DNA from: Cyanophyceae cyanobacterium
GTDB lineage: Bacteria; Cyanobacteriota; Cyanobacteriia; Cyanobacteriales; SIO1D9
DNA length: 47,092 nucleotides
NCBI GenBank assembly: GCA_038320005.1
Contig: JBBQDV010000001.1
Span: 1 to 47,092 of the forward strand
Reading direction: 5' to 3'
The notes under the pieces are model-generated. The model was not told the origin of the DNA. It ran no database searches and worked only from the letters and a program-made list of their open reading frames with translations. The position numbers were made by a program, and so were the translations under genes. Shown here in pieces: positions 3,551 through 45,235 of this stretch; position 1 is the stretch's first letter; every line of letters starts with the position of its first letter.

Positions 3551-6500
3551 ATGACGACTTTACACGGAAGTTGGATTTTAGAACCAGGATACCTTTTTAT
3601 TTGGGGAGAAACCTGGCGTAGTGTCAGTTCCTATGAATCAGCAACTCTGGCTGAAACACCCTCCCCTTATCCTTACGCGATGACGGAAGAGGAGTTACAG
3701 CAATATCTTAAATCTCACTTTGGAGAAGTGGAATTTAGTGCAGATTGGCAAACTCAAGGGGTGACTCTCCCTTCTATTGTTATTAAAAATCGTACTAAGA
3801 ATAAACCTCTTTTACCACTTTCTTCCGACCGAACTATTCCCCAGGATGCAACTCTACAGCCTTGGACAATTGGGGGCTATAGATTAAGTCCAGAAAATGC
3901 TACCCAACTTTTACAAGCCTTACCATTAGGACTCTCTACACCCAAAACCGCATTTGCAAACATTGATTTACAATTTTGGGCGCAGGTCTATCGTTGGAGT
4001 TTGGATTTAATCGCCCGTAGTAAGTTCCTCCCAGGTGTATGTACTACCGCTACAGGGGAAGGAATGACTTGTTGGCTACCTCTTCTTGATAGTCGCACAG
4101 ACCAAGAACGTTTGCGTGATTTTAGCCAAAATATTGCCCCTCCCTGTTTGAGTTATCAACAACAGCCTGAAGCGACCCCACAGGAGTTAATTCTCGGCTT
4201 TCTCAGTAATATTATCAACGCCCAAGTTCAAAGCTGGACGGAAGCTAATCTGGCTTTAAGTAAGGATACAGAGGTTTTCGAGTGGGCGCGATCGCTTTCT
4301 GGCGAAGAAGTATCATTAGAAGCAAGTAGCATTGACCGCTTCACTAAAGTCCTAGAAAACTGGACAACCCCCATCCAGAATTATTTAGTTAATCCCCTCA
4401 CCCATCAACTCGGAGAAAACCCCTATCGCCTTTGTTTTACACTTATTCCCCCTACTGATGGTGAAATGAATTGGGGACATAGTGACTGGAAGCTACAATA
4501 TTCCCTACAAGCCGTTGATGACCCTAATTTCTTGATTCCTTCCGAAATAGTTTGGCAAAATCCTGTAGATGAATTGGATTATCAAGGAAGAGTTATTGAA
4601 GAACCCCAAGAAACCCTCCTCAAAAACTTAGGTTTAGCAGTCCGTTTATACGAACCCATAGGCGAAAGTTTAGAAAAAGATTTACCCACTCATTCTCTTC
4701 TTAATCCTATTGAAGTTTATACTTTTATTCGCGGGAAAGTTTGGCAACTGCAAAATAGCGGTTTCGGCATCAATTTACCCCCTGGTTTAGAACAAGGGGA
4801 AGAGAAACGTTTAGGAATTAAAATTACTGCGCAAGTTGAGCCTCAAAAAGGGCAAAGTTTAGGCTTAAAAAGCTTATTGCAATACAAACTTGAATTAGCT
4901 GTTGGTGAAGCCACTTTATCGAAAGCAGAATTTGAACGTTTACTAGAACAAAAATCTCCCTTAGTTAAAGTTAAAAGTGAATGGATAGCCCTTCAACCTG
5001 CGGATGTCAAAGCAGCCCAAGAAATCTTAGCAACTAAAAGTCAAGAAAATCTATCAGTTGAAGATGCGGTTCGTCTGACAATGGGAGAAGAACGGGCGTT
5101 TGCGAAGTTACCCGTTGTGGACTTTGAAGCCAAAGGAGTCCTCGATGACTTACTCGCAGCCCTAAATAATAACCAAAAACTCGAACCCATCAGCACCCCA
5201 GAAGACTTTCATGGCGAATTGCGTCCTTATCAAGCGAGAGGAGTTAGTTGGTTAGCTTTCCTCGAAAAATGGAGTCTTGGGGCTTGTCTTGCTGATGATA
5301 TGGGCTTGGGTAAATGTATTACCCCTGAATCTCTAGTTTTTATTAATGGTGATTTAAAATCAGCAGTCGAGATTTGGGATAACTACGCAGGGGAAGAACT
5401 ATTTGATGGCGAAGGTTTTTGGACAACTCCAACAAAGCCCCTTTTAGTGAATGCTATCAACGAGGAAACAGGTAAAATTATTCAATCTCCCATTAATAAA
5501 TTATATCGGCAAAAAGTTAGCGAGAAACTGCATAAGATTAGCTTAAAAAATGGGAGTAATATCACTATTACTAAACGCCATAAACTTTTAACTAATAGAG
5601 GTTGGACAAATCAATTTAAAATAGGTGATCAAGTTGGTGTTCCTTCTCGATTAAATTGGCAAGGAAAAGCAGAAGATGAAGATTTAGTCAAGTTCCATGC
5701 TCGGAAAATTGCAACAGGAAATGAAACTAAAAAAATTCCCTCTTTCATCATGCAATCTGATATAGATACAGTGAGATTATTCCTCATTAACTATTTTTCT
5801 GCTAAGGATTCGGTAGTTTTTAAAAACCAGAGTCTAGAAATTACGGTAACATCATCCCAATTAATGCAACAAATTTCTACATTATTGAGACGCTTAGGGA
5901 TTTGGTTACAAATTAAATGCAAAGTCAAACAGTTAACTAACTCTCAAGATAGCCATGCTGATTATATTGGCACAATTGAAGGCGATGCTGCTAAAAGATT
6001 CTTAGCGGAAATTGGGATTAGTAATGCAAAGAAACAAAACCAACTAGAAGCAATATTTAGTTCTAATCCAGAAAAGAATAGTAAAACCAACTTATTAAAT
6101 CAGGAAGTCTTCTATTCTCCCATAACCTCAATCGAAGAAATTGATTATCAAGGTTGGGTCTATGACTTTGAAGTTCAGCAACACCATAACTTCGTGGCGA
6201 ATAATATTATTTGTCACAATACCATCCAAATGATTGCCTTTCTTCTCAACCTGCGCAAAGAAGAAAAGTTTGATCATCCTACCTTACTAATTTGTCCCAC
6301 TTCCGTATTAACCAACTGGGAACGAGAAGTTAAACGCTTTGCACCAAGTTTATCTACCTTAGTCCATCATGGTGATAAGCGTCACAAGGGTAAGACTTTC
6401 GCTAAAGCAGTTGAGAAGAAAAACCTCGTAATTACCAGTTATCCCCTCGTCTATCGCGACCTAGACACCTTAAAAGCAGTAAATTGGCAAGGGGTGGTAT

Positions 6501-7561
6501 TAGACGAAGCCCAAAACGTCAAGAATCCCCAAGCGAAACAATCTCAAGCAGTACGTCAGTTTAATCCTGGCTTCCGTATCGCATTAACTGGAACACCTGT
6601 AGAAAATCGTTTATCGGAACTATGGTCAATTCTCGACTTCCTCAATCCCAACTATTTAGGAGATAAGCAGTTTTTCCAAAGACGTTTTGCTGTCCCAATT
6701 GAGAAATATGGCGATCGCGATTCCCTCCAAACCCTAAGATCTTTAGTACAACCCTTCATCCTCCGTCGTCTCAAGACCGATAAAGAGATTATCCAAGATT
6801 TACCTGAAAAACAGGAAATGACAGTTTTCTGTGGCTTATCCGCTGAACAAGCAGCCATATATCAAAAATTAGTCGAAGACTCCCTCAAAGAAATTGAAGA
6901 TACCGAAGGAATTAAACGCCGAGGTCTAATCCTCACCCTACTCCTAAGACTAAAACAAGTTTGTAACCATCCCGCCCAATACTTAAAACAAAAGCAGATT
7001 GATTCAGCCAGTCGGTCAGGAAAACTTCAGCGTTTAGTGGAAATACTTGAAGAAATGATCGAAGAAGGAGATCATGGTTTAATCTTCACCCAATTTGCAG
7101 AATGGGGTAAACTCCTACAGACTTATCTCCAACAAAAACTAGGGGTAGAAGCATCCTTCCTCTATGGTTCAACCTCGAAAAAGCAACGGGAAGAAATGAT
7201 CGACCGCTTCCAAAATGACCCTGACGCACCCCCAATCTTAATTTTATCTCTAAAAGCAGGGGGAACAGGACTCAACCTAACTCGCGCCAACCACGTCTTC
7301 CATATCGACCGTTGGTGGAATCCAGCCGTAGAAAACCAAGCCACAGACCGCGCTTTCCGCATAGGTCAAACCCGTAATGTCCAGGTTCATAAATTTGTCT
7401 GTACTGGAACATTAGAAGAAAGGATTCATGAAATGATTGAAAGCAAAAAGCAACTCGCAGAACAAACCGTTGACGCAGGGGAACAATGGGTAACGGAACT
7501 AGATACAGACCAATTACGGAACTTACTGCTATTAGACCAAGGCGCAATTATGGAAGATTAA
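3551..7561 (+). CDS. SNF2/SWI2-family DEAD-like helicase with a long N-terminal bacterial SNF2-associated region; contains an intein
   Basis: Helicase motifs LRPYQ..GVSWL, ADDMGLGK|...|TIQ (motif I, split by the intein), VVLDEAQNVKN (motif II) and LTGTPVENRL (motif III). C-terminal helicase motifs are LIFTQF, LSLKAGGTGLNLT and DRWWNPAVENQATDRAFRIGQ. Confidence 0.93.
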   Translation: MTTLHGSWILEPGYLFIWGETWRSVSSYESATLAETPSPYPYAMTEEELQQYLKSHFGEVEFSADWQTQGVTLPSIVIKNRTKNKPLLPLSSDRTIPQDATLQPWTIGGYRLSPENATQLLQALPLGLSTPKTAFANIDLQFWAQVYRWSLDLIARSKFLPGVCTTATGEGMTCWLPLLDSRTDQERLRDFSQNIAPPCLSYQQQPEATPQELILGFLSNIINAQVQSWTEANLALSKDTEVFEWARSLSGEEVSLEASSIDRFTKVLENWTTPIQNYLVNPLTHQLGENPYRLCFTLIPPTDGEMNWGHSDWKLQYSLQAVDDPNFLIPSEIVWQNPVDELDYQGRVIEEPQETLLKNLGLAVRLYEPIGESLEKDLPTHSLLNPIEVYTFIRGKVWQLQNSGFGINLPPGLEQGEEKRLGIKITAQVEPQKGQSLGLKSLLQYKLELAVGEATLSKAEFERLLEQKSPLVKVKSEWIALQPADVKAAQEILATKSQENLSVEDAVRLTMGEERAFAKLPVVDFEAKGVLDDLLAALNNNQKLEPISTPEDFHGELRPYQARGVSWLAFLEKWSLGACLADDMGLGKCITPESLVFINGDLKSAVEIWDNYAGEELFDGEGFWTTPTKPLLVNAINEETGKIIQSPINKLYRQKVSEKLHKISLKNGSNITITKRHKLLTNRGWTNQFKIGDQVGVPSRLNWQGKAEDEDLVKFHARKIATGNETKKIPSFIMQSDIDTVRLFLINYFSAKDSVVFKNQSLEITVTSSQLMQQISTLLRRLGIWLQIKCKVKQLTNSQDSHADYIGTIEGDAAKRFLAEIGISNAKKQNQLEAIFSSNPEKNSKTNLLNQEVFYSPITSIEEIDYQGWVYDFEVQQHHNFVANNIICHNTIQMIAFLLNLRKEEKFDHPTLLICPTSVLTNWEREVKRFAPSLSTLVHHGDKRHKGKTFAKAVEKKNLVITSYPLVYRDLDTLKAVNWQGVVLDEAQNVKNPQAKQSQAVRQFNPGFRIALTGTPVENRLSELWSILDFLNPNYLGDKQFFQRRFAVPIEKYGDRDSLQTLRSLVQPFILRRLKTDKEIIQDLPEKQEMTVFCGLSAEQAAIYQKLVEDSLKEIEDTEGIKRRGLILTLLLRLKQVCNHPAQYLKQKQIDSASRSGKLQRLVEILEEMIEEGDHGLIFTQFAEWGKLLQTYLQQKLGVEASFLYGSTSKKQREEMIDRFQNDPDAPPILILSLKAGGTGLNLTRANHVFHIDRWWNPAVENQATDRAFRIGQTRNVQVHKFVCTGTLEERIHEMIESKKQLAEQTVDAGEQWVTELDTDQLRNLLLLDQGAIMED
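5315..6220 (+). other. intein (302 aa, Cys589-Asn890) inserted in Walker A of the SNF2 helicase
   Basis: The host motif reads GLGK-[CITPESLVF ... VYDFEVQQHHNFVANNIICHN]-TIQM. The element has Cys1, a block B TKRH (TxxH), a terminal HN, and a +1 Thr that restores GKT. The central region carries LAGLIDADG-like remnants (VRLFLINYFSAKDS, LLRRLGIW, AKRFLAEIGIS). Confidence 0.88.
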
Positions 7562-7563
7562 CA

Positions 7564-7953
7564 TCAAACTAGAGGAGGAAGAAGTTCCACCAAATCTTCA
7601 ACCTTCCTCAAATCTGGGTCTCCAGCTAAATATGCTATACCGCGATGCAGATGTAACTTAAACTGTTGGGCGAGAACCTCCTTATCCGTTCCCAAACCAT
7701 CGTTGTAACAGCGTTGCTTGAGGGCGATAATCAGATAATCAGAGAGTTCCCCCCCAAAGACACGCCAAGTCATTTCGATATTACTATCAGTGACAATAGG
7801 GACAGGGGAAGGAATGCTTGCTTCAGCGAGGGAACGACATAAGCCCCAACGACATAGGACATTCCAGTTGTCTATTTTGGTATAGCGTTTTAGTTTCAGC
7901 AATTGTTCCCTAGCTGTTTGGGAAACACGCACACGCTCAACAGGAGATTCCAT
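7564..7953 (-). CDS. DndE-like protein (DNA sulfur modification protein DndE family), orphan
   Basis: Matches the DndE pattern as I remember it: VRVSQTAREQLLKLKRYTKIDNWNVLCRWGLCRSL ... MTWRVFGGE ... LHLHRGIAYL. The track ORF starts with GTG at 7995; the ATG at 7951-7953 gives about 130 aa, the typical DndE size. Confidence 0.7.
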   Translation of the reverse strand: MESPVERVRVSQTAREQLLKLKRYTKIDNWNVLCRWGLCRSLAEASIPSPVPIVTDSNIEMTWRVFGGELSDYLIIALKQRCYNDGLGTDKEVLAQQFKLHLHRGIAYLAGDPDLRKVEDLVELLPPLV

Positions 7954-8052
7954 AAGTATCGAAAAATAATTATTAACTTTTGGGAATATTGACACTCTAA
8001 AACGTCAGTAAACCATTATAGCTATTGGAAAACTGTTCTTGTTCTATTTTAA

Positions 8053-8502
8053 ATGATGGCATATAAGCTATCATTTGCTATGGCTATTAAAATTGTGGTT
8101 GATACTAGTGTTTTTGTTGCTGGGTTAATTGGTTCGACAGGAGCTAGTCGGGAACTCATTCGACGCTGTTTAACGCTAGAATATCAGCCTTTGATGGGGA
8201 CAACCTTATTTAGTGAGTACGAATCCGTTATAAATCGAGATAAAATTATTTCTCTATCTCCTCTGACGCAGGCAGAAATTATCTCTTTATTAGCCTCATT
8301 TATTAGTGTCAGTGAATGGGTTTCGATTTACTACTTATGGCGACCAAATTTAAAAGATGAAGCAGATAATCATTTAATTGAGTTAGCAGTTGCCGGCAAT
8401 GCTCAATTTATTGCTACTAATAATATTAGAGACTTTCAAAATTCCGAACTGCTCTTTCCAAATTTATCAATTTCAAAACCTGAAAAGATTATAAGGAATT
8501 AA
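8053..8502 (+). CDS. PIN-domain toxin (PIN_3-type putative toxin-antitoxin toxin component)
   Basis: Motifs IVVDTSVFVAGL (first acidic residue), FSEYESV, and DEADNHLIELAVAGNAQFIATNNIRDF, which matches the C-terminal PIN_3 pattern. The start could instead be M10 at 8080. Confidence 0.8.
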   Translation: MMAYKLSFAMAIKIVVDTSVFVAGLIGSTGASRELIRRCLTLEYQPLMGTTLFSEYESVINRDKIISLSPLTQAEIISLLASFISVSEWVSIYYLWRPNLKDEADNHLIELAVAGNAQFIATNNIRDFQNSELLFPNLSISKPEKIIRN

Positions 8503-8508
8503 ATAACA

Positions 8509-8733
8509 ATGGCAACTTTAACAGTTCGTATACCCGATGACAAACATTCAAGATTAAAGCAACTAGCTCAAGCAAGGGGTATCAGTCTGAATAAGCTAAT
8601 TGAGGAGCTTTCGACAATAGCCTTAGCTGAGTTCGATGCTTACACTCGCTTTAAATCAATGGCTGCTAGTGGCAATCCAGAGGAGGGTTTAAGGCTTTTG
8701 GATAAATTGGATGAATTAACAGAAATGGAGTGA
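8509..8733 (+). CDS. ribbon-helix-helix (CopG/Arc-type) antitoxin
   Basis: N-terminal RHH pattern: TLTVRIPDDKHSRLKQLAQARGISLNKLIEEL. It starts 6 nt downstream of the PIN gene. Confidence 0.75.
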   Translation: MATLTVRIPDDKHSRLKQLAQARGISLNKLIEELSTIALAEFDAYTRFKSMAASGNPEEGLRLLDKLDELTEME

Positions 8734-8775
8734 AGATGATGACCCCATTGTTCCGCCTCGTTAAACGAACTAATT

Positions 8776-9774
8776 TCAAGTTAACTTATCCAATTCTTGC
8801 TGAAGTGCGGTTACATCTGCACCGTTCCCTTCTTCCTCTGACACAATAGAGCGCATTCCTTCTAAAGTAGAGAGGATATTGCGAGGGTCCATGAACATCA
8901 CCTTGCTACTTTGGCTGCTACCAATTGTTGCACCCATTTTGAGGTAATCTTGAGTTAGGAGAAACTGAAGGGCTTCGCGAGCAGTGGGATCATTTTTCAG
9001 TTTTTCTCTGATAAGTTCTAGGGCTTTAGCTGTTCCCTGCGCTTTCAAGATTGACTCTTGGGCGTTTGCTTCCGCTTGTAAGACAGTGGCTTTCTTTTGC
9101 CCTTCTGCTTGTAAGATAGCTGCTTTTTGGTCTGCTTCTGCGTTTAATATCCGCGCCCTCGCTTTACCTTCTGCGGAGTTGACGGCGGAATCTCGTTGTC
9201 CTTCTGAGGTGAGGATATTAGCCCGTTTTTGCCGTTCTGCTGCCATTTGTAACTCCATCGAGTCTTGAACGGTTTTAGAAGGAAGGATATCGCGCAATTC
9301 TACCCTTGTTACTTTTACGCCCCAAGGATCTGTGGAAATGTCAAGCTCTTTTAATAAAATGTCATTAATCTCGCTACGGGCGGTAAAGGCTTGGTCAAGT
9401 TCAAGTTGTCCCATTTCTGAACGAATTTGGGTAAGAACTAAGTTAACCATTGCTTGTTGCAGACTTTCTACTTTGTAGTAGGCTTTCTCCATATCCATGA
9501 TTCGCCAGTAAACTACTGCATCTACTTCAATGGAAACGTTATCTCTGGTGATACATTTTTGGGGTGGGATATCAATTACTTTTTCCCGAATTGTTCCTTG
9601 GTAAACGATTTTATCGAGAAAAGGGACCATGAAATTAAGTCCAGGGGTGAGCTTTTTGTTGTAGCTTCCTAGACGTTCGACGAGGGCTTCATTTTTCTCG
9701 TTAATAATTTTAACAGAACCCACTAAACCAGAGCCTCCAAGGGCTAGAAAGACGAGTAGTACAAATTGCTCCAT
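8776..9774 (-). CDS. SPFH/Band 7 (stomatin/slipin-like) protein
   Basis: N-terminal TM segment, then an SPFH core ([13 protein letters not shown]..., [26 protein letters not shown]) and an Ala/Gln-rich coiled-coil tail. Confidence 0.9.
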
Positions 9775-9821
9775 GATCAGTATCCTTTTTTAGAAATTTA
9801 GGTAAGTTAGAAAATTTGCGA

Positions 9822-10253
9822 TTACTCTAAAAGCTGTTGTGGCAATACTACTAAGATATTACCCTCCCGTCGAACCACAAATACTTTTTCGTTGGGCGCG
9901 ATCGCGCAACTTTGATCCGCACAAATAGCTTGCCAAGAATTCCCCTCATATCTTACTCTTCCACCTTTCCCTGGCAAAATTTCACTGATCGTTTCTGCTT
10001 CTTGGGAATCTCCTAAACTAGATTGACGACGGCGAGGCGTAAACCGCTTTCTCACAAACAGAACTAAAATAATTGAGAAAACTAGCCAAAGTGCTACTGT
10101 AGCGGTGAAAGGAACTTGGGGAAAAATAACCGAAATGACCGCCACCAACAAAGCACCCACTCCCATTGTAAAATCAAGAAATGCAGTGGGGAGGAATAAC
10201 TCCGATAGACAAAGAGCAGATCCAATTAAAAGCCAGATGAGAGTGATATCCAT
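9822..10253 (-). CDS. NfeD-family membrane protein
   Basis: Three N-terminal TM segments and a C-terminal OB-like NfeD domain (GGRVRYEGNSWQAICAD...VFVVRREGNILVV). It lies directly upstream of the SPFH gene, which is the classic NfeD-SPFH operon. Confidence 0.85.
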   Translation of the reverse strand: MDITLIWLLIGSALCLSELFLPTAFLDFTMGVGALLVAVISVIFPQVPFTATVALWLVFSIILVLFVRKRFTPRRRQSSLGDSQEAETISEILPGKGGRVRYEGNSWQAICADQSCAIAPNEKVFVVRREGNILVVLPQQLLE

Positions 10254-10373
10254 ATGAGCTAAACTTAGCTAGATATAACAAATATATCCTCTTTATCTTA
10301 ACTTTTCTGGGTAAAACTCTCGAAAGCGAAATTATTTGCTTTGCGAAAGACCCGACATGAACCATAACCCCTT

Positions 10374-12200
10374 ATGAGCCGTTCTGATTTACAGATACCA
10401 TCCTATCTTTGGGCAATAGGGAGTACAGCAGCTAAGTTTACTCCCAATCAATTAGTCCTTGACCGCTACAACGTGATTGCGCCTCAGATTTGGCAAGATC
10501 GCAACACCCTGACGGGTCAGCACCATCGTGATAATCTGACCTACGCGCCAGAGGAATTACCCGCAAGCACGATTCCCTACCTCGCCCTATTTCCCCACCG
10601 TCTTCACCTGCCAGTAATTTATAGCATCTGTTTCGTTAAAGAAGCAGAAATTATCTTATTAGAAAACGTTCCCTTCACCGAAAACGGTCAACTTCTCCCT
10701 ACCTTAACTGAAAGTTGGCAAGAAGCCACTCCTGTACGCCAACTCTACTGGCTTTGGCAGATTTTAGAACTTTGGCAACCATTGATGGAACAAAGGGTAG
10801 GAAAAAGCCTCTGCATTGCGGATAACCTCCACGTAGAAGGCTGGCTTGTCCGATTACGAGAACTCTATCCAGATGAGAAAACCCCCTCCTTAGGGCAACT
10901 GGGTACAACTTGGTCTGATTTAGTTGAACATAGTGATGCCGAAATTGCCCCTCAACTCGAAGCTCTAATTCAGCAACTACAAACCCCTGAGAGCAAGCTT
11001 AAAGACGTACAAACTAACCTGAACCAACTCCTCCTTAGCCAAGCCAGTCAACAACCATTAGGAGTCAGTTTCGCTAGTAGCACGGATCTTGGTGTAAAAC
11101 CCAACCACAACGAAGATAGTCACTACCCCACCGCAGCAGATGTGGAAGACCCCCTGTCCCAATACCTCGCTATTGTCTGTGATGGGATTGGGGGACATGA
11201 AGGGGGAGAAGTGGCGAGTCAGCTTGCGGTACAAACCCTCACCCTGCAAATACGGGCTATTTTGGTGGAACTAGAAGTTGATCCCGAACCCATGACTCCC
11301 CAGATGGTTGCAGATCAACTAAATGCGGTTCTGCGAGTCGTGAATAACTTGATCTGCGCTCGGAATAATGAGCAAGAGCGAGAACATCGTCAGCGCATGG
11401 CAACAACGGTGGTAATGGCTCTACAATTGCCCCAAAGAGTCCTAAATTCGGGTTCAGACCTCAATAGTCATGAACTTTATCTTGCCCATGTGGGAGATAG
11501 TCGGGCTTATTGGCTAACTGCGGAGAGTTGTCATCTGTTGACCGTTGACCATGATGTGACTAATCGAGAGGTGCGCATGGCGCGGAGTTTATATCGCGAA
11601 GCCCTACAACGTCCCGATGCAATTGGCTTAACTCAGGCTTTGGGAACTCGGGATGCGGAATCTTTGCGCCCTACTATCCAAAGGTTCATTTTAGAGGAAG
11701 ATGGACTTTTGCTGCTTTGTTCAGATGGCTTAAGTGATCATCAATGGGTTGAGGAATCTTGGCGAAATTTTGTCCCCCAGGTATTAGGGGGAGAATTGTC
11801 TCTAGAAGCCACTGTGAAGGACTGGATTGCTCAGGCAAAGGAACAAAATGAAGATGATAATATTTCTCTGGTTTTAACCGCTTATCGCGTCTCTCCCCTG
11901 CCTGAAGTGGTAGTTTCTCCAGCGGAAGTCCCTAATTTTGAGCTTGTCCAAGAAATTGAGACGCAACCAATCCCTGAACCAATGCTATCTGCGATTGTAC
12001 CTTTGCTGGCTGTGGAAAAAGAAGAGTTAGCAAAAACTGAGTCTCCTGAACCGATTCAGGCTAGACCTAGTTGGGTGAGAATGATCGCGATCACTTTTAC
12101 CGTCATGGCTTTAATTACCACAACCTTTGCTGTGGGGCTGATTGCTCAACAATGGTTCTTTCCTAGCGAGTCAGAGACAGAAATTGAACAATCCCAATAA
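10374..12200 (+). CDS. PP2C-family Ser/Thr phosphatase with an N-terminal kinase-like (probably inactive) region and a C-terminal TM anchor
   Basis: PP2C motifs NEDSHY, AIVCDGIGGHEGGEVAS, AHVGDSRAY, LLLCSDGLSD and DDNISLV. The C-terminal hydrophobic segment is MIAITFTVMALITTTFAVGLI. Confidence 0.85.
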   Translation: MSRSDLQIPSYLWAIGSTAAKFTPNQLVLDRYNVIAPQIWQDRNTLTGQHHRDNLTYAPEELPASTIPYLALFPHRLHLPVIYSICFVKEAEIILLENVPFTENGQLLPTLTESWQEATPVRQLYWLWQILELWQPLMEQRVGKSLCIADNLHVEGWLVRLRELYPDEKTPSLGQLGTTWSDLVEHSDAEIAPQLEALIQQLQTPESKLKDVQTNLNQLLLSQASQQPLGVSFASSTDLGVKPNHNEDSHYPTAADVEDPLSQYLAIVCDGIGGHEGGEVASQLAVQTLTLQIRAILVELEVDPEPMTPQMVADQLNAVLRVVNNLICARNNEQEREHRQRMATTVVMALQLPQRVLNSGSDLNSHELYLAHVGDSRAYWLTAESCHLLTVDHDVTNREVRMARSLYREALQRPDAIGLTQALGTRDAESLRPTIQRFILEEDGLLLLCSDGLSDHQWVEESWRNFVPQVLGGELSLEATVKDWIAQAKEQNEDDNISLVLTAYRVSPLPEVVVSPAEVPNFELVQEIETQPIPEPMLSAIVPLLAVEKEELAKTESPEPIQARPSWVRMIAITFTVMALITTTFAVGLIAQQWFFPSESETEIEQSQ

Positions 12201-12291
12201 ATAATTCCCTTCTTGTGCAAGAATGGTAAGGTTAATCTTGGGGGTAACTACTGCCTCACCGCTGTAATTAGAGACAAGCAAAAGAAGTTAT

Positions 12292-12513
12292 ATGAAAGTT
12301 GGCGATCGCGTCCGTGTCACCGAATCAGTTATTGTCTATCATCACCCTGAACATCGTAAAGATGCCTTTGACATTAAGGGGATGGAAGGAGAGGTAATTG
12401 GTCTTATTACTGAATGGGAAGGAAGACCTGTCAGTGCCAATTTTCCCATACAAGTCAAGTTTGGTAAAAAATTCCGCGCCCATATGCGAGAAGATGAAGT
12501 CGAAACAGTTTAA
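12292..12513 (+). CDS. ftrV: ferredoxin-thioredoxin reductase variable chain
   Basis: 73 aa: MKVGDRVRV...VYHHPEHR...FDIKGMEGEV...PVSANFPIQVKF..KFRAHMREDE. This is characteristic of FtrV. Confidence 0.85.
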   Translation: MKVGDRVRVTESVIVYHHPEHRKDAFDIKGMEGEVIGLITEWEGRPVSANFPIQVKFGKKFRAHMREDEVETV

Positions 12514-12576
12514 ATTACCGCGACTTTTCATTAAGTCGGTAAGATAAAATACTGAATTGATCCTTTACCTCTAAAG

Positions 12577-13896
12577 ATGCAAAAACTTCCTAGACGAGTC
12601 TCAACGGCACTCCTTAACGCCCTAGCTGCGGGAGTTGTCCCCAGAGTGGGTTTAGATTCTATCGCTGTTGGTCGCGAAAAAGAAGTCAATGCCCTCCGCC
12701 AAGATTTAGAAAATATTGGTGCTGGGGGTGCGACTTTTCGCTTTGTTGTGGGACGCTATGGGGCAGGAAAAAGCTTTTTATTACAGTTACTCCGCAATCA
12801 GGCGATGGAACAGGGGTTTGTGGTGGCGGATGCAGATTTATCTTCTGACTGTCGCCTCGCAGGGAGTCGTAATCAAGGGGTGGCTACCTATCGGGAGTTG
12901 ATGAAAAATCTTGCTACTCAAACTAGTCCCAATGGTGGCGCGATCGCGCTTATCCTGGAAAAGTGGATTAGTAATATTCTCTCTAAAGTTGCGACGCAAA
13001 CGGGTAAACGTCCAGGGGATGAAGAATTTGAAACCCAAGTTGAATCACAAATTATCACCGTTGTCAATGATTTAGAAGGTTTAGTTCACGGCTTTGATTT
13101 TGCCAATGTGATTATCAACTACTGGCGAGGCTACCGTGAAGATAATAACGAACAAAAAGAATCTGCCTTACGGTGGTTGCGAGGAGAATTTAACACCAAA
13201 ACTGAAGCGAAAAATGCTTTAGGTGTGGGGGTAATTATTGATGATGACACTTGGTACGATTATCTGAAACTATTTGCTAAATTCATCGCAGATTTAGGCT
13301 ACAAAGGTTTACTGATTTTCCTTGATGAAGCCATTCATATCTATAAAATTACCCATAAGGGTTCACGCCAAAGCAACTATGATAAGCTTCTCGCCATGTT
13401 TAATGATGCCATGCAAGGGAAAGCAGAACATCTTGGTACAATTATCGGGGGAACTCCCAAATTTATCGAAGATACCAGGCGCGGACTCTACAGTGATGAA
13501 GCTTGGCGAACTCGTCTTGCGACCAGTCGCTTAGTTACCCAAAGTGGAATTACCGACACCTCAGCCCCAACTATTTATCTTAATCCCCTAACCGAGTTAG
13601 AATTGTTGCAACTTCTCCAAAATTTAGTTACGGTTCACAGTACCCATTACCAATCGAAAAGCCAGATTTCCGCAAAGCAAATCAATTCCTTTACCGCAGA
13701 AGTTTCACAACGTTTAGGGGCGGATAAATTAACAACTCCCAGAGAAGTTGTCCGAGATTTTATCACCTTACTGAACCTACTACAACAGAATCCAGAAATG
13801 AAGTTTGAGCAATTACTGACTAATTCTAAGTTACTCAATCCTGAACAAGATAATAAATCTCAGCAGAGTAACGAATTTGCAGAATTTACCCTCTAA
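12577..13896 (+). CDS. DUF2791/BrxC-like P-loop ATPase (BREX-system ATP-binding-domain family)
   Basis: N-terminal pattern AAGVVPRVGLDSIAVGREKEV..L..DL, a Walker A GRYGAGKSFLL, and a Walker B-like LLIFLDEA. Size is about 440 aa. Confidence 0.7.
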   Translation: MQKLPRRVSTALLNALAAGVVPRVGLDSIAVGREKEVNALRQDLENIGAGGATFRFVVGRYGAGKSFLLQLLRNQAMEQGFVVADADLSSDCRLAGSRNQGVATYRELMKNLATQTSPNGGAIALILEKWISNILSKVATQTGKRPGDEEFETQVESQIITVVNDLEGLVHGFDFANVIINYWRGYREDNNEQKESALRWLRGEFNTKTEAKNALGVGVIIDDDTWYDYLKLFAKFIADLGYKGLLIFLDEAIHIYKITHKGSRQSNYDKLLAMFNDAMQGKAEHLGTIIGGTPKFIEDTRRGLYSDEAWRTRLATSRLVTQSGITDTSAPTIYLNPLTELELLQLLQNLVTVHSTHYQSKSQISAKQINSFTAEVSQRLGADKLTTPREVVRDFITLLNLLQQNPEMKFEQLLTNSKLLNPEQDNKSQQSNEFAEFTL

Positions 13897-14036
13897 AGTT
13901 GTCAAGGGGTGTTTGTCGTCCAAATAATAGCTAAGATACGGTTAGATTACTTGGGTCGTGACTCAAGCCTTGACAATAGCTAAATTCGTCTTTTTCCGCT
14001 AAATCTTCACCGCAAGCATCTTTGGGCAAATCGATT

Positions 14037-15275: not shown

Positions 15276-15348
15276 AGCCTCAGACAGGATTTGAACCTGC
15301 GACCCCGAGATTACAAATCACGTGCTCTACCAACTGAGCTACTGAGGC
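15276..15348 (-). tRNA. tRNA-Thr (anticodon UGU)
   Basis: The reverse complement folds as a cloverleaf: acceptor GCCTCAG/CTGAGGC, D arm GCTC-AGTTGGTA-GAGC, anticodon arm CGTGA-TTTGTAA-TCTCG (one T:T mismatch), variable loop GGGTC, T arm GCAGG-TTCAAAT-CCTGT, discriminator T. No CCA is encoded. Length 73 nt. Confidence 0.9.
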
Positions 15349-23054: not shown

Positions 23055-24443
<1,389 letters not shown>

Positions 24444-24464
24444 TTATTTAATATTCCTTTATTA

Positions 24465-24550
24465 ACAGCTTCCCTCCGCCAGAATTAACTGGACTCAGGT
24501 TCTAAGGGTCTAATCTCAGCCTGATTAAATTCAGACACCCCTAGCGTTAT
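24465..24550 (-). promoter_or_regulatory. TPP (THI-box) riboswitch in the thiC leader
   Basis: The minus-strand RNA reads CGCUAGGGGUGUCUGAAUUUAAUCAGGCUGAGAUUAGACCCUUAGAACCUGAGUCCAGUUAAUUCUGGCGGAGGGAAG. The GGGGUG, CUGAGA, ACCC, GAACCUGA, UAAU and GCGGAGGGA blocks match the TPP aptamer consensus. It ends about 22 nt before the thiC ATG. Confidence 0.9.
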
Positions 24551-24589
24551 TGCAGATCCTAGCATCTTTAGAGCAACCTATTCACGTTT

Positions 24590-37768: not shown

Positions 37769-37797
37769 AGCCTCTTACAATGGTTTATTTAGTAATC

Positions 37798-39935: not shown

Positions 39936-39976
39936 GAAAATAGCTTAAAAGCAACGGACAAAGTGGAGGGGGAAAG

Positions 39977-41518
39977 GTGAGTTTGTATCAAACCATTGCG
40001 GGTATACGTTCTTATCTAGAACCGCAGCGTTTAGAAAAGAGTATCGCTTTAGTGCCGACGATGGGGGCATTACATTTAGGTCATGTTAGCTTAATTGAGA
40101 ACGCGATCGCGCAAAATGATCTTGTTGTTGTCAGCATCTTCGTTAACCCTCTCCAGTTTGGAGTCACAGAAGACCTAGACACCTATCCACGACAATTAGA
40201 ACAAGATTATCAACTCTGTAAAAAATTAGGAGTTAATGCGGTTTTTGCCCCCACCCCAAGCGCAATGGGCATAACTGAAAATAGTAACTCCGTTGCTACT
40301 ACTTTAGTTGTTCCTCCAAGTGAGATGATCTCCGTTCTCTGTGGCAAATATCGGCAAGGGCATTTTCAAGGAGTTGCGACTATTGTTACTAAACTTTTTA
40401 ACATTATTCAACCCACTAGGGCTTATTTCGGTAAAAAAGATGCTCAACAACTCGCCATCATTCGCCGTCTAGTTACCGACCTTTGTCTTCCCGTCACCAT
40501 TCAAGGCTGTCCGACTATTAGAGACACCTCTGGACTTGCCCTCAGTTCCCGTAACCAGTATCTCACTCCGCAACAACGAGAACAAGCTGTCATCTTATTC
40601 CGTAGCCTCCGTAAAGCCCAAGCACTTTTCAAGACTGGTGAGTATAACAGCAGTATCTTAAAAGAAACCCTCAAGCAAGAATTAGCGAGCGTCCCCGATA
40701 TCAATGTACAATATATAGATTTGGTTGATCCTGTCACTTTAGCCCCCCTAGAGACTATCGAAACAGCAGGACTTTTAGCCATTGCCGTATATATTGACTC
40801 AACTCGCCTAATTGATAACATGATCTTACATCGTCGCCAGCCCATTATTGCCGTTGATGGACCCGCAGGAGCAGGAAAATCTACCGTAACGAAAAGAATA
40901 GCCAAAGCTTTAGGGCTACTATATTTAGATACAGGCGCAATGTATCGTGCCGTAACCTGGCTAGTTTTAGATGCTGGTATCCCTATTAATGATGAACCCG
41001 CAGTTGCGGAATTAGTCAGCCAAGCAAAAATAGAACTAATTCCCACAGATGCAACTAATAGCAACATCCAAGTTACAATTAACGGTCAAGATGTGACCGA
41101 AGCGATTCGCACCCCCGAAGTTACCGCCCAAGTTTCCGCTATTGCTGCTCAAGCTGCGGTGCGTCAAGCTTTAGTGAAACAACAACAAAATTGGGGAGAA
41201 AAAGGTGGAGTTATTGCAGAAGGGCGAGATATTGGCACTCATGTCTTCCCCGATGCGGAACTAAAAGTCTTTGTAACTGCTTCTGTGCAAGAACGCGCCC
41301 GTCGCCGTTGGGAAGAATGGAAAAATCGTGAAGATGTAACCCTTGAACAGTTAGAAGCCGATATTCAACAACGCGATACCCTTGATAGTACCCGTAAAAT
41401 CTCCCCTCTTTGTAAAGCAGATGATGCGGTTGAAGTTGTGACGGATGATTTAAGCATTGAAGAAGTAACCGCTCGAATTATTGAGTTATATCAATCTTTA
41501 GATTCAATCGCTGTTTAA
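39977..41518 (+). CDS. panC: bifunctional pantoate--beta-alanine ligase / (d)CMP kinase
   Basis: The N-terminal PanC part has VPTMGALHLGHVSLI and YFGKKDAQQ. The C-terminal Cmk part has IIAVDGPAGAGKSTVTKRIA..LG..YLDTGAMYRA. The start codon is GTG. This fusion is typical of cyanobacteria. Confidence 0.93.
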   Translation: MSLYQTIAGIRSYLEPQRLEKSIALVPTMGALHLGHVSLIENAIAQNDLVVVSIFVNPLQFGVTEDLDTYPRQLEQDYQLCKKLGVNAVFAPTPSAMGITENSNSVATTLVVPPSEMISVLCGKYRQGHFQGVATIVTKLFNIIQPTRAYFGKKDAQQLAIIRRLVTDLCLPVTIQGCPTIRDTSGLALSSRNQYLTPQQREQAVILFRSLRKAQALFKTGEYNSSILKETLKQELASVPDINVQYIDLVDPVTLAPLETIETAGLLAIAVYIDSTRLIDNMILHRRQPIIAVDGPAGAGKSTVTKRIAKALGLLYLDTGAMYRAVTWLVLDAGIPINDEPAVAELVSQAKIELIPTDATNSNIQVTINGQDVTEAIRTPEVTAQVSAIAAQAAVRQALVKQQQNWGEKGGVIAEGRDIGTHVFPDAELKVFVTASVQERARRRWEEWKNREDVTLEQLEADIQQRDTLDSTRKISPLCKADDAVEVVTDDLSIEEVTARIIELYQSLDSIAV

Positions 41519-41552
41519 TAATTAGCTAAAAGCTCAAGTCCGTTCTTACTAA

Positions 41553-42245
41553 TTAGCTATTTATTCCTATCCCTTCGAGTCGCGATAACCAATCATTAAA
41601 GTGAGGACATTTACTCCGAATTACTTTTAAACCGATTAATTCTGCTAATTGTGAGCCTTCTATAACTTTTGCTTTTTTGTAAGCAGGAAATTGAGCAATA
41701 ATACGCTTACTAGGGGCAGTATTCTCGCCATCGTTAATCAATTCAGGTGTCTCATATTCATCTGCAATATCTTGGAGAGTTTTAATTTCTTCTGTGCAGT
41801 TGTCGTAAAGTTCACTAAAATGACTTAGGTCGGCAAAAAGGTATGCTTCATATTCATGTAACTGGATATAGGGAATAAATCTTGGGTCGTTAATATCTTC
41901 CGCAAAACGTCGTTCTAGAAATTCGACCCACTTTTGAGGAGTAAGAGTTAAATTATTAGCCTCAGACAGTCCTGGAAAATTACCGTGAATTGCGTATAAG
42001 TCAATCATAGTAGTAAAAAAGACATCAGCACTTTTCTCCTGCTTGAGAAAACGTATAATATCGTTTTTCATCGGTTCATAATTACCACGACCACTACCCC
42101 CTCGGTGAATTTTACCCTTTCTCTTAGCATGGGCAATTAATACAGGGTAAATATATATTCCCCATTGAGCCAAATGTAACTGTAATACATTATCAGCAAA
42201 TGTTTGCTCCGTTTGTCCTTCAGCAAATAAATAGAGGCGTACCAT
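41553..42245 (-). CDS. DUF4276-like protein with a Toprim-like N-terminus (putative nuclease partner of the upstream ATPase)
   Basis: 230 aa. The N-terminus MVRLYLFAEGQTEQTF resembles the Toprim/OLD (V)EG.tE glutamate motif. The C-terminus KRIIAQFPAYKKAKVIEGSQLAELIGLKVIRSKCPHFNDWLSRLE matches my memory of DUF4276. It starts 3 nt after the ATPase stop. Confidence 0.7.
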   Translation of the reverse strand: MVRLYLFAEGQTEQTFADNVLQLHLAQWGIYIYPVLIAHAKRKGKIHRGGSGRGNYEPMKNDIIRFLKQEKSADVFFTTMIDLYAIHGNFPGLSEANNLTLTPQKWVEFLERRFAEDINDPRFIPYIQLHEYEAYLFADLSHFSELYDNCTEEIKTLQDIADEYETPELINDGENTAPSKRIIAQFPAYKKAKVIEGSQLAELIGLKVIRSKCPHFNDWLSRLEGIGINS

Positions 42246-42248
42246 TAA

Positions 42249-43343
42249 TTAATGTGGTCCCCCAGCAACAATATTCTTCTCCCAAATTTCTCCTAAGCTA
42301 TACTCCTCAAGCCATGATTCTAGTTCAATAGGATTTAGTCGCTTAAATACAGATTCTTTATCTACTCTATCTACTGCAATTACATCTTCAGGTTCAAAAT
42401 TATCTAAGAAAGAACTTGATTGAGTGCTAATCAGAATTTGTGTATTAGATGAAGCCTTTCCAAACATTGCAGCTACAGCATTTAGGGCATAAGGATGAAG
42501 ACCTAATTCTGGTTCATCGACAACAATAAGTTCCGGCAATTCTTTTTCTGGCTGTAATAGTAGTGTTGCCAGACAGATAGCTCGCAAAGTACCATCTGAA
42601 AGTTGATGTGGTCCGAACACTCTGTCTGTCCCAAGTTCTCTCCAGTTCAAAATAACTCGATTAGATATATCAGGCTGAAGGTCAAAGTCATCAAAAAATG
42701 GGGCAATTAAACGGATACTTCTAATAATACGGCGATAAGCTGTATTGTTTTCCTCACGAAATCTGAGCAGTAAAGCAGCTAGATTGCCAGCATCAGGCAT
42801 TAGCCAACGACTATCACCAATATAGCAAGACTGGCGAACTTCCGCTGTGGACGATGTATCGTGGAAATGATAAACACGGCAACGATGGAGTAAGTAATCT
42901 AAGGTTTTTGCTGTTGGCATTCCGTTCTTGGCTACTTCACTAATTTTTGTTTCTTGATGTCCTGCACTCAAGGAATCAATTCTTGGAGAATCATAGCCCG
43001 TTTGTAAAAAACTTAGTGTTTCCTCGGCGAAGATGAGCGTATCACCCACAGCATGAAATAAACGCATATTATAGGTATCTATGCCATTTTCAACCTCAAA
43101 TTCTAGACATGCTTCTATTTGTGGTGTTATCTTTGCACCATAGTAGAGAAGAGATTGAGCGCGCCCTGAGATTCCAATATATTGTTGTAATCTTCCTGCC
43201 ATCATCTCATTTAGCATCTTGAAAAAGGAAACAAAGTTGCTTTTCCCTGCCCCATTTGCCCCAATTAAGATGTTTAACGAACGTAATTCAATATCTATTG
43301 CCTTAATGGACTTAAACCCTTTTAGGATTACCCGTTGCAGCAT
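42249..43343 (-). CDS. ABC/SMC-like P-loop ATPase (AAA_21/COG4637-like)
   Basis: Walker A GANGAGKS (43239-43262), a signature-like HQLSDGTLR, Walker B/D-loop LIVVDEPELGLHP, an H-loop-like LISTQSS, and the tail LGEIWEKNIVAGGPH. Confidence 0.85.
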   Translation of the reverse strand: MLQRVILKGFKSIKAIDIELRSLNILIGANGAGKSNFVSFFKMLNEMMAGRLQQYIGISGRAQSLLYYGAKITPQIEACLEFEVENGIDTYNMRLFHAVGDTLIFAEETLSFLQTGYDSPRIDSLSAGHQETKISEVAKNGMPTAKTLDYLLHRCRVYHFHDTSSTAEVRQSCYIGDSRWLMPDAGNLAALLLRFREENNTAYRRIIRSIRLIAPFFDDFDLQPDISNRVILNWRELGTDRVFGPHQLSDGTLRAICLATLLLQPEKELPELIVVDEPELGLHPYALNAVAAMFGKASSNTQILISTQSSSFLDNFEPEDVIAVDRVDKESVFKRLNPIELESWLEEYSLGEIWEKNIVAGGPH

Positions 43344-43370
43344 AATAACTTTCTAATTTACTCCAAATTA

Positions 43371-43634
43371 TCACAACTTAGAGCGAAGGGTAAACTGGTA
43401 GTCTCCTCCTGGTTCGAGTTGATAGTCTGACCTTTCCAAAAAGCGACTGAGAGGTTCGGTAATCAGGGCGCGTCCGAGGGAAGGACTCACGGATAATGTT
43501 CCTTTGCGAAATCTCCATTTAAATTGCCACTCATATTCCGCTGCTTGAACTTCTCCTTCTAGTCGTCCTTGTTGCCAAGATTGTTGAGTAATGCGAACAT
43601 GGGCAGTAGTTTGGGGCAAATGTTGAGAACTCAA
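43371..43634 (-). CDS. small conserved hypothetical protein (87 aa; possibly DUF3146-like)
   Basis: The ORF has only a TTG start. Its composition resembles the native genome rather than the adjacent ATPase pair. The sequence HVRITQQSWQQGRLEGEV...SLGRALITEPLSRFLERSDYQLEPGGDY looks like a small cyanobacterial family I cannot verify. Confidence 0.5.
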   Translation of the reverse strand: MSSQHLPQTTAHVRITQQSWQQGRLEGEVQAAEYEWQFKWRFRKGTLSVSPSLGRALITEPLSRFLERSDYQLEPGGDYQFTLRSKL

Positions 43635-43758
43635 TGTATTTCTTGATATCTATAGTCTTCTCACCAATTAAGATAACAAATCTTTGCTGATCATGAGTTG
43701 AATTTTCCTTGCTATCCTAGAAATAGGATGCTGTCTAGATAGTAAATAAGGGACAAGT

Positions 43759-44127
43759 ATGGCTGGTGGATTTGGTAACATTGTACAGAAAGCTTTTTAT
43801 CTAGGGGTGGGTGTAGCTGCCTATGCTGGAGAACAAGCCAGTAGTCGGCTCAAAGAAGTACGCATTCAAGGGCAAAAGTTAGCGGATGAGTTGGTAGCAA
43901 GGGGAGAGATTAAGGCTGAAGAGGCGCAGAAGTTTGTTGATGATTTAGTTCAGCAAGCCCAAAAGCAGGAGACTGTTTCCCAAGAAAAACCTTCTTCTCA
44001 ACCTCGTCAAATTGAGATTCTCGAAGATGATGCGGAAACGGATAGTTCCAAAGCAGGTGAGGATGTAGATAATTTACGTCAGCAGGTGGAAACTTTGCAA
44101 GAACAATTGCGAAATTTAAAAGAATAA
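43759..44127 (+). CDS. phasin-family-like coiled-coil protein
   Basis: The N-terminus GFGNIVQKAFYLGVGVAAYAGEQA...LADELVARGEI..EEA..FVDDL resembles proteins annotated as phasin family in cyanobacteria. The assignment is tentative. Confidence 0.55.
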   Translation: MAGGFGNIVQKAFYLGVGVAAYAGEQASSRLKEVRIQGQKLADELVARGEIKAEEAQKFVDDLVQQAQKQETVSQEKPSSQPRQIEILEDDAETDSSKAGEDVDNLRQQVETLQEQLRNLKE

Positions 44128-44148
44128 GCTAATCTAATTTTTATTAAT

Positions 44149-44523
44149 ATGCAAGACTGGTCAAAAGATTTTTTTGAAGCCATAGATTTTGTTGCCACTG
44201 AACTTGAGCAATTTTTTGAAGAGGTTGAGGAAGTGGTGGAAATGGTTGCTGATGAAATTAATATAATATTGGTTCAAGATTTAGATCAATTTCTGGAAGA
44301 TCTGTTTGAGCCATTTTTAGATGCTGATCAAGATTTTGATTATTTTGGGGATCTAGATCCATCTATGGGCGATAAAGTCAAGCCTTCTTTAGACAAATTT
44401 CCCGCTTGTATTGGTTGTCAAAATTATCATGGTTATTCCCATGGTGGAAATCTGTTGATATGTGGAATGCACCCCTATGGTTGGGATGGAGAAAGTTGTC
44501 CCGATTGGGAAGATGGTAATTAG
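44149..44523 (+). CDS. hypothetical highly acidic protein with a C-terminal Cys/His cluster
   Basis: The first 80 aa are very D/E-rich. The C-terminus is CIGCQNYHG...CGMHPYGW...CPDW. It lies 21 nt after the previous gene and 25 nt before queF. Confidence 0.6.
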   Translation: MQDWSKDFFEAIDFVATELEQFFEEVEEVVEMVADEINIILVQDLDQFLEDLFEPFLDADQDFDYFGDLDPSMGDKVKPSLDKFPACIGCQNYHGYSHGGNLLICGMHPYGWDGESCPDWEDGN

Positions 44524-44548
44524 TTATTGGAATTATAGGTATTAATTT

Positions 44549-44953
44549 ATGAGTCAGGCTGTTGAACCGAAAGAAGAAAGTAAATATGGTGAACGGGAGA
44601 TTGCGTCAGGGGAACTGATTACCTTCCCAAATCCTCGCCCTGGACGGAGATATGATGTCCAGATAACTCTACCTGAGTTTACCTGTAAGTGTCCGTTTTC
44701 GGGCTATCCTGATTTTGCGACGATTTATATTACCTATGTGCCAAATGAAAAGGTTGTGGAGTTAAAGGCGATTAAATTATATATTAATAGTTATCGCGAT
44801 CGCTATATCTCTCACGAAGAATCTATTAACCAAATCCTTGATGATTTTGTGGCTGCGTCTGACCCCTTAGAGGTAAGAATCAAAGGGGACTTCCATCCCC
44901 GTGGTAATGTCCACACTGTGGTTGAAGTACAACATCAAAAATCAGAAAGCTGA
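44549..44953 (+). CDS. queF: NADPH-dependent 7-cyano-7-deazaguanine (preQ0) reductase, type I
   Basis: Motifs EFTCKCPFSGYPDFATIYI.Y.P....VELKAIKLYINSYRD..ISHEE. Confidence 0.95.
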   Translation: MSQAVEPKEESKYGEREIASGELITFPNPRPGRRYDVQITLPEFTCKCPFSGYPDFATIYITYVPNEKVVELKAIKLYINSYRDRYISHEESINQILDDFVAASDPLEVRIKGDFHPRGNVHTVVEVQHQKSES

Positions 44954-45235
44954 TTCGCTTTTGTCCCAGACCATTTTAGAGATCATTTCTAAATCCGCTT
45001 CTTCTGGACGATAGCCATAAGCGGTTTCCCACGCATTCATGAGATTTTGCCATTCCTGGGGAGTCTGGGGCTTCTTCTGGACTAAGGTAAGAAAGTTAGT
45101 TTTATTACGAGCTTTGAGGGGATGCACGCCCATCTGAATTAGGCGTAGTTCTACCTCTGAATTAGTGCTATTAGACAAAATTTCAGCATATTCAGTATCT
45201 AATAAGTTAATTCTTTCTATTGTTGGCTTACTCAT
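44942..45235 (-). CDS. hypothetical protein (97 aa)
   Basis: ATG-initiated ORF. Its 3' end overlaps queF by 12 nt. I recognise no family. Confidence 0.5.
   Translation of the reverse strand: MSKPTIERINLLDTEYAEILSNSTNSEVELRLIQMGVHPLKARNKTNFLTLVQKKPQTPQEWQNLMNAWETAYGYRPEEADLEMISKMVWDKSESAF

Follow-up and report, generated by a model that had tools for sequence, protein, structure and literature searches.

We asked what kind of system is formed by two adjoining genes, one for an ABC-type ATPase and one for a DUF4276 protein, in a 47,092-nucleotide stretch of a cyanobacterial genome (Cyanophyceae cyanobacterium, GTDB lineage SIO1D9; assembly GCA_038320005.1, contig JBBQDV010000001.1, positions 1 to 47,092 of the forward strand), here called the window. 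A first-pass annotation, made without database searches, had read the pair as a split OLD/PARIS-like module, probably an acquired and uncharacterized defense system. Judged by profile matches, the pair is not uncatalogued: it is a stand-alone copy of the candidate defense system HEC-01. The best explanation, which we consider probable though far from settled, is that this HEC-01 copy was carried in horizontally and works by an OLD/PARIS-like activation of a nuclease. The pair consists of the following features:

42249 to 43343, minus strand: HEC-01A gene, encoding a compact ABC ATPase of 364 amino acids (SMC/Rad50/OLD type), assigned from the open reading frame (ORF) list, Pfam and PADLOC

41553 to 42245, minus strand: HEC-01B gene, encoding a DUF4276 protein of 230 amino acids, a putative Toprim-like metal-dependent nuclease effector, assigned from Pfam and PADLOC

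42246 to 42248, minus strand: TTA spacer of 3 nt that separates the stop codon of HEC-01A from the start codon of HEC-01B

Both proteins match HEC-01 models end to end. Against PADLOC-DB v2, the ATPase matched PDLC04175 with an E value of 2.6e-140 (465.6 bits; residues 2-363 on profile positions 6-362 of 363), and its partner matched PDLC04188 with an E value of 1.6e-74 (residues 1-226 on profile positions 12-226 of 230). Matches of the ATPase to other PADLOC families were weaker: mad3 (1e-26), AriA (2.6e-23, partial), AbiLi (8.8e-22), Old (2e-16) and GajA (2e-14). The HEC-01B models, for their part, matched 69 of 69 diverse DUF4276 representatives (36-64% identity). The two genes lie on the same strand across the 3-nt spacer, and the same order was found in seven other loci; in the homologous loci, the genes abut or overlap by one base. 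The ORFs and the junction (...GGPH TAA-tta-ATG GTA CGC, a gap of exactly 3 nt) bear out the gene arrangement given in the first-pass annotation, all of the motifs that it quoted are present in the two translations, and the profile searches that it proposed gave matches to DUF4276, AAA_21 and AAA_15, with HEC-01A and HEC-01B as the PADLOC assignments. What it overestimated was the novelty of the system. So short a spacer implies a single predicted transcript and, probably, coupled translation.

The motifs of HEC-01A are Walker A GANGAGKS (residues 28-35, with Lys34), signature LSDGT (248-252), Walker B LIVVDE (272-277, at the start of the stretch LIVVDEPELGLHP, residues 272-284) and STQS (306-309). 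The first three are invariant in 36 homologues, and the motifs are also kept in three distant ones. Pfam assigned AAA_21 (3e-25), AAA_15 (1.5e-15) and also SMC_N. An AlphaFold2 (AF2) model with a predicted local distance difference test score (pLDDT) of 81 contains the ABC head fold, and Foldseek matched it at an E value of ~1e-14 and a probability of 1.00 to PtuA (of Septu and retron systems), the Smc head and Rad50. Conservation is spread evenly along the protein and is lowest at residues 111-150 and 191-210; RVYHFHDTS, APFFDDF and, near the C terminus, YSLGExWxKN are among its conserved segments.

HEC-01A has no histidine at the H-loop position. The residue there is Gln308 (STQS; residues 306-308 = 42420..42428), and it is invariant both in the 36 homologues at 74-83% identity and in the 3 at 41-46%. 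An hhalign comparison with P2 Old reached 95.6% probability over the segment containing the signature, Walker B and H-loop and paired QILISTQSS of HEC-01A with QVIISTHSA of Old, which places Gln308 at the His position. Because a glutamine at this position is found in degenerate, slowly hydrolyzing ABC-transporter sites, its invariance suggests that HEC-01A acts as a slow, switch-like ATPase and not as a motor.

HEC-01B, which the first-pass annotation had correctly recognized as DUF4276, matched that family (PF14103) with an E value of 9.7e-58 and 196 bits (cutoff 30.2) over the whole profile (positions 1-192 of 192); the family comprises ~3,400 clusters at 50% identity. The protein begins with LYLFAEGQTEQ (residues 4-14, including Glu9 and Glu13) and ends in CPHFNDWL (213-220). 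Its AF2 model (pLDDT 92, predicted TM score [pTM] 0.88) has the order b1(2-8)-a1-b2(30-36)-hairpin-a2-b3(75-82)-helices-b4(122-127)-helical tail. Ten residues are invariant in the 69 representatives (E9, G10, E13, G50, D82, E131, E133, P178, F216 and W219), and T79, Y84, H130, S179, R181, K193, C213 and H215 are conserved in at least 90%. Invariant E9 directly follows the strand at residues 2-8 in the AF2 model, as does the glutamate after strand 1 of a Toprim domain, and EGQTE aligns with EGKTE of P2 Old. Behind strand 4 lies a second invariant pair, E131-x-E133, which together with H130 forms an HExE motif; H130-E131-x-E133 may supply the remaining carboxylates of a metal site.

DUF4276 (Mad4) has been classed as a new member of the Toprim superfamily (Menshen paper, PMC12065111), and we take the Toprim membership of HEC-01B from this published assignment; our own tests were only weakly positive. 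Among sub-threshold Foldseek matches in the PDB, GajA had the highest probability, 0.77 (TM 0.40), and four GajA entries stood in the top 50; in BFVD, a phage RloB-like protein ranked first with a probability of 0.80. OLD-like_TOPRIM (PF20469) was weakly matched by 3 of the 69 DUF4276 members (best E value, 0.0012). An hhalign comparison of the DUF4276 profile with six Old Toprim regions gave P=0.008, with the Glu and Asp motifs in register; the Old profile is a small one of six sequences. Viral contigs gave no more diverse Old homologues.

The first-pass annotation was right about the design, an ABC/SMC-type ATPase combined with a separate protein of the DUF4276 Toprim kind, and about its relationship to OLD, PARIS and AbiL-type systems, which published work likewise notes. 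HEC-01 as defined by Payne et al. has the same gene order (ATPase, then DUF4276) and the same components, an ATPase of the ABC type with a Toprim-like partner. Payne et al. defined it from copies nested in Hma/MADS operons, whereas the present copy stands alone among housekeeping genes. MAD3-MAD4 of MADS likewise combine an AAA_21-type ATPase with a DUF4276 protein. As an assignment for this locus, MADS was rejected: the ATPase scored 109.6 bits against the MAD3 equivalog NF047739 (cutoff 420), no MAD-specific model matched the 230-residue protein, and the mandatory MAD6-8 and methyltransferase (within ~10 genes) were not among the nearby ORFs scanned.

PARIS resembles the pair in being split into two genes, with an ATPase of the AAA_15/21 superfamily and a Toprim-type effector. 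It was rejected as an assignment because the effector is DUF4276 and not DUF4435 (no AriB match in PADLOC at an E value of ≤0.1) and because AriA is not the best ATPase family (a partial match at 2.6e-23, versus 2.6e-140 for HEC-01A). The ATPases differ as well, AriA being ~53-55 kDa and HEC-01A much smaller, at 364 residues, with Gln at the H-loop. OLD and GajA resemble the pair in the ATPase segment alignable to P2 Old, in the EGxTE motif (EGKTE in Old) and in GajA being the highest-probability PDB match. A fused OLD (class 1/2, GajA) was rejected, since ATPase and Toprim form one chain there and two ORFs separated by a stop codon here; P2 Old also has DxD (D453-C-D455) and STHS where HEC-01 has D-L-Y and STQS. 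AbiL and RloA-RloB, finally, share an AAA_15/21 ATPase with a small separate partner of the Toprim superfamily. They were set aside because the 230-residue protein had no match to RloB (PF13707) or AbiLii and the HEC-01 models fit far better.

The first-pass annotation had held that the DUF4276 pairing lacks an experimentally defined function. That view does not survive comparison with PADLOC, which catalogues the pairing as HEC-01, or with the literature, which reports two tests in Escherichia coli and a requirement for MAD3 and MAD4 in MADS defense. HEC-01 stands for Hma-embedded candidate 01; it was described as an ABC ATPase that goes with a TOPRIM protein, and the latter's metal site can be superposed on the one in Burkholderia OLD (Payne et al., bioRxiv 10.1101/2024.01.29.577857). 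That study is the only systematic test of HEC-01. A second report, on cold-seep genomes, counts HEC-01 among their most abundant types of candidate system and describes protection of E. coli B by one representative against at least one of the three phages tested, T4, T5 and T7 (2026 Nature Communications, PMC12881386). In MADS, deletion of mad3 or mad4 reduces defense, and the otherwise lethal deletion of mad5 is tolerated when mad3 is also deleted; MAD3 and MAD4 are nonetheless called "accessory," as some MADS operons are without them (Maestri et al., bioRxiv 10.1101/2023.03.30.534895). We found no mechanism for HEC-01 in the literature searched.

The distribution of the pair is patchy, spans several cyanobacterial orders and crosses phyla. 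HEC-01A is 74-83% identical to homologues assigned to Nostoc, Coleofasciculus, Pseudanabaena, Microcoleus, Spirulina, Thermosynechococcaceae and Blastocatellia, and HEC-01B is 64-72% identical to homologues from taxa that include Acidobacteriota and a metagenome-assembled genome (MAG) labeled Chloroflexaceae. The neighboring housekeeping gene gives a different picture: in a search of 5.8 billion proteins, the best matches of PanC-Cmk were at 69% (a Joint Genome Institute [JGI] contig) and 68% (a Xenococcaceae MAG), with Hydrococcus, Pleurocapsa, Stanieria and Gloeothece coming next, and a scan of genome and metagenome contigs with PanC-Cmk found no relative above 59%. An exact-sequence look-up of the window's DUF3146 and ATPase proteins returned no match. 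On these comparisons, the host lineage is one with no close sampled relative. HEC-01A is 81% identical to its Nostoc commune homologue, while PanC-Cmk is 59% identical to that of Calothrix, and it is because the HEC-01 matches in distant taxa are so much closer than those of PanC-Cmk that we regard the pair as having spread horizontally.

Gene order points the same way. In the two nearest loci, purM-rlpA-panC/cmk is syntenic and synteny stops right after panC-cmk, so that by this comparison the pair sits where the conserved block ends; HEC-01 and DUF3146 are both absent behind panC-cmk in these two relatives. The synteny comparison proposed in the first-pass annotation thereby agreed with an accessory pair, its reach being that of distant relatives (68-69% PanC-Cmk identity). 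An ATPase gene followed by an abutting or overlapping DUF4276 gene also occurs on contigs assigned to Nostoc, Spirulina, Chloroflexaceae (a MAG label) and Acidobacteriota, with different neighbors each time, and three IMG/VR contigs carry distant pairs in the same order. One of these, a putative viral contig, has within 5995..12127 a pair at 46% and 41% identity that adjoins a DNA methyltransferase gene, a nucleoside 2-deoxyribosyltransferase-like gene and a ParB-like gene. In Nostoc commune NIES-4072 (11101..13952), an IS66-family transposase splits the DUF4276 gene into pieces of 136 and 98 amino acids, from which it follows that the system is dispensable; a gene of the baeRF (bacterial eRF1-like) family lies immediately upstream of the ATPase gene there. 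The Spirulina subsalsa pair has a DUF433/DUF5615 toxin-antitoxin-type pair just upstream (9057..9556) and otherwise lies between genes for aspartate kinase and an amino-acid ABC transporter with recA. On the Chloroflexaceae MAG contig (8886..10702), the pair has a guanine-plus-cytosine (GC) content of 40-43%. A higher value would be expected of a Chloroflexaceae genome; binning may have misplaced the contig, or the cassette may be a recent arrival.

Selection on the pair is purifying. Pairwise nonsynonymous divergence (dN) was 0.12-0.19 for the ATPase and 0.23-0.27 for DUF4276, synonymous divergence (dS) was saturated for every homologue examined, and dN/dS is far below 1 for both genes. The low GC content noted in the first-pass annotation was upheld in direction, at 39.3% for HEC-01A (z -1.6) and 36.8% for HEC-01B (z -2.5), against 43.3 +/- 2.6% for the other 38 ORFs of the window (panC-cmk, 43.8%; purM, 46.0%). 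GC at third codon positions (GC3) was likewise low (HEC-01A, z -2.0; HEC-01B, z -2.3). The deficit amounts to only 4-6 points, two further ORFs of the window are as GC-poor as the pair, the fit of its codon usage to the rest of the window was not deviant (HEC-01A, z -0.5; HEC-01B, z +0.35), and the GC content of HEC-01 copies varies widely among host contigs. With so small a deficit, native-like codon usage and saturated dS, composition is a weaker argument than the first-pass annotation made it, and the acquisition was not recent. Altogether, the comparisons indicate a self-contained mobile cassette that was horizontally acquired and is kept under strong purifying selection, in line with the accessory nature proposed in the first-pass annotation, which had also placed the pair correctly between housekeeping panC-cmk and a small gene (DUF3146).

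The same cassette-like behavior would be expected if the pair were a selfish addiction system of the toxin-antitoxin kind, with HEC-01B as a toxic nuclease and HEC-01A as its ATP-dependent neutralizer. Such a pair would persist and spread because its loss harms the cell, and phage defense would be at most a side effect. Solitary two-gene cassettes in unrelated chromosomal contexts fit this picture, as do the toxin-antitoxin-type neighbors of the Spirulina copy, the failure of the largest screen to detect defense and the Pfam text for AAA_21, which reads "putative AbiEii toxin, Type IV TA system" domain. The insertion sequence (IS) in Nostoc commune sits in the putative toxin gene and not in the antitoxin gene, which fits either model. 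One homologue was, however, reported to be protective, mad3 and mad4 contribute to MADS defense, and a dN/dS far below 1 in both genes, at saturated dS, speaks for a selected function over mere addiction. We therefore judge addiction unlikely as the main explanation.

Conservation this high, an ATPase head fold like that of SMC, Rad50 and RecF, and housekeeping genes on all sides could also be those of a housekeeping DNA-repair or recombination module, in which a RecF/Rad50-like ATPase and a nuclease would serve the host chromosome. We hold this to be very unlikely, as the pair is patchily distributed and occupies a different locus in every genome, is missing beside panC-cmk in the nearest relatives, tolerates disruption by an IS and shows cross-phylum identity far above that of true housekeeping genes. 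HEC-01A also has no coiled coil and no Mre11/SbcD-type partner, and pairs occur on IMG/VR viral contigs, in one case beside a methyltransferase gene.

The pair is best explained, then, as a horizontally carried HEC-01 system, and by analogy with PARIS, OLD/Gabija and Septu we infer a mechanism in four steps. PARIS is the likely model for it, as there the nuclease stays held by an ATPase scaffold until set free by a trigger. HEC-01A would oligomerize through ATP-sandwich dimerization, bind HEC-01B and keep it inactive. An infection cue would then shift the nucleotide state or conformation of HEC-01A. HEC-01B would be released or activated as a result, and with a metal bound by the carboxylates of E9, E13, D82, E131 and E133 it would cut either tRNA or other RNA, in the manner of AriB, or DNA, in the manner of OLD and GajA. 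Phage replication would stop, probably at the infected cell's expense.

Several observations weigh against this explanation. The canonical Toprim DxD is absent: the strand at residues 75-82 ends in D82-L83-Y84, and the second Asp is also missing from the viral-contig copies of HEC-01B at 34-41% identity. The first-pass annotation had proposed a structural search with this protein, and while its model is a confident one, Foldseek found no match to it in PDB or BFVD at an E value of ≤1e-3. Alignment of the DUF4276 profile with the single P2 Old sequence by hhalign gave nothing, and profile searches for relatives of DUF4276 with solved structures gave no credible match. An ATPase as conserved as HEC-01A would be an unusual sensor of fast-evolving phage proteins. 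The HEC-01 representative assayed by Payne et al. in E. coli did not protect against coliphages, whether BASEL or classic (bioRxiv 10.1101/2024.01.29.577857), and the positive report concerns a single representative and gives little detail. The defense role of the present copy is predicted from experiments on homologues, all of them in hosts other than cyanobacteria, and for complex, trigger, substrate and outcome alike we infer by analogy. The pair also lies outside any defense island or Hma/MADS operon, in a window that stops 3.7 kb past it on one side and so covers the MADS or defense context there only in part. A PADLOC search of ten more nearby ORFs (27498-35985 and 45417-46982) found no significant defense match except a partial one to a dCTPase, which belongs to a deaminase-family ORF (cytidine/tRNA deaminase type in Pfam).

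Some of these same features could be accommodated if HEC-01 were a fifth class of OLD-like ABC-Toprim immunity, with a mechanism of its own, that senses a universal, slowly evolving cue, a proposal to which we give little credence at present. The ATPase, with its degenerate H-loop (Gln for His), would be an ATP-bound latch and not a hydrolyzing motor, and the effector would be a DxD-less Toprim variant that uses EGxTE, only one Asp, HExE and a CPHF..W tail. ATPase identities of 74-83% across phyla at saturated dS would be the mark of a cue that is itself universal and slow to evolve, for example some nucleic-acid structure or a process in the host, as opposed to a variable protein of the phage. 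Returning to the horizontally acquired HEC-01 copy that we favor, the picture of the family is unchanged by this locus, and the annotation label should be HEC-01 (candidate defense) and not that of a novel system. With the phage-challenge results for HEC-01 in conflict (one negative report and one positive), the locus adds a clean, solitary and intact copy from a little-sampled cyanobacterial lineage, and its conservation singles out Gln308 in the ATPase and E9, E13, D82, E131, E133, C213 and H215 in the partner.

Expression signals and repeats around the pair were as follows:

43344 to 43394, minus strand: upstream region, comprising a 27-nt spacer behind the DUF3146 stop codon and a promoter-like TTTACC-16 nt-TGTGATAAT that overlaps the DUF3146 end

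41515-41528 and 41546-41559: 14-nt direct repeat, TTAATAATTAGCTA / TTACTAATTAGCTA, i.e., TTA[A/C]TAATTAGCTA

41609-41623 and 43356-43370: 15-nt repeat, 14/15 identical, ATTTACTCC[G/A]AATTA

The promoter scan overall was at chance level (8 found versus 7.2 expected), which makes TTTACC-16 nt-TGTGATAAT a consensus match only, and no terminator-like hairpin was found behind HEC-01B in the convergent 34-nt spacer. Transcription of the pair from this embedded promoter or by read-through from DUF3146 is possible on such signals. The lack of a recognizable promoter or terminator of its own, together with a GC3 below that of the rest of the window, is what one might see in an inactive relic of an old transfer that has lost its function. 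We consider this highly improbable, as both ORFs are full length against their profiles, every invariant residue of the family is kept and dN/dS is far below 1.

The copies of the 14-nt repeat overlie the stop codons of panC-cmk and HEC-01B on either side of the 34-nt convergent spacer, and this repeat may be due to chance. Of the 15-nt repeat, one copy falls within the 3' end of HEC-01B and the other in the spacer immediately upstream of HEC-01A, so that they roughly bracket the cassette. In a search for insertion scars near the pair, only such short two-copy repeats were found, possibly by chance.

Around the pair (36003-46022), Pfam assigned ORFs to a cysteine desulfurase-like aminotransferase, purM, an RlpA-like DPBB protein, a panC-cmk fusion, DUF3146 and queF, and the adjoining ORFs all belong to housekeeping families or have no Pfam assignment, with no methyltransferase, helicase or other MADS-type gene among them. 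The panC-cmk gene is convergent with HEC-01B and 34 nt away; on the other side, the 87-residue DUF3146 gene lies on the same strand, 27 nt upstream of HEC-01A, and its product had no PADLOC match. Between a 122-residue ORF without assignment and queF lies an ORF (44149..44523, plus strand) for a very acidic protein of 124 amino acids with a Cys-rich C-terminal end, which had no Pfam match and a GC content of 37.1% (z -2.4). No tRNA or Rfam element was found near the pair. The only tRNA of the window, tRNA-Thr(TGT) at 15276..15348 on the minus strand, is far from it, so that the pair has no tRNA-linked insertion site.

Elsewhere in the window, a 1,336-residue SNF2-family helicase (3551..7561, plus strand; DUF3670, SNF2-rel_dom and Helicase_C) is interrupted by an intein at approximately residues 634-890 that carries a LAGLIDADG homing endonuclease. 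Next to it, a solitary DndE-family protein (7564..7995, minus strand; 3e-41) adjoins a PIN_3 protein (8053..8502, plus strand) whose ORF has the lowest GC content of the window, 34.7% (z -3.4). This DndE/PIN_3 spot may be a further accessory or defense-related site, ~33 kb from the HEC-01 pair. Finally, a thiamine pyrophosphate (TPP) riboswitch (24454..24552, minus strand; 65 bits) lies directly upstream of thiC (23055..24443, minus strand).

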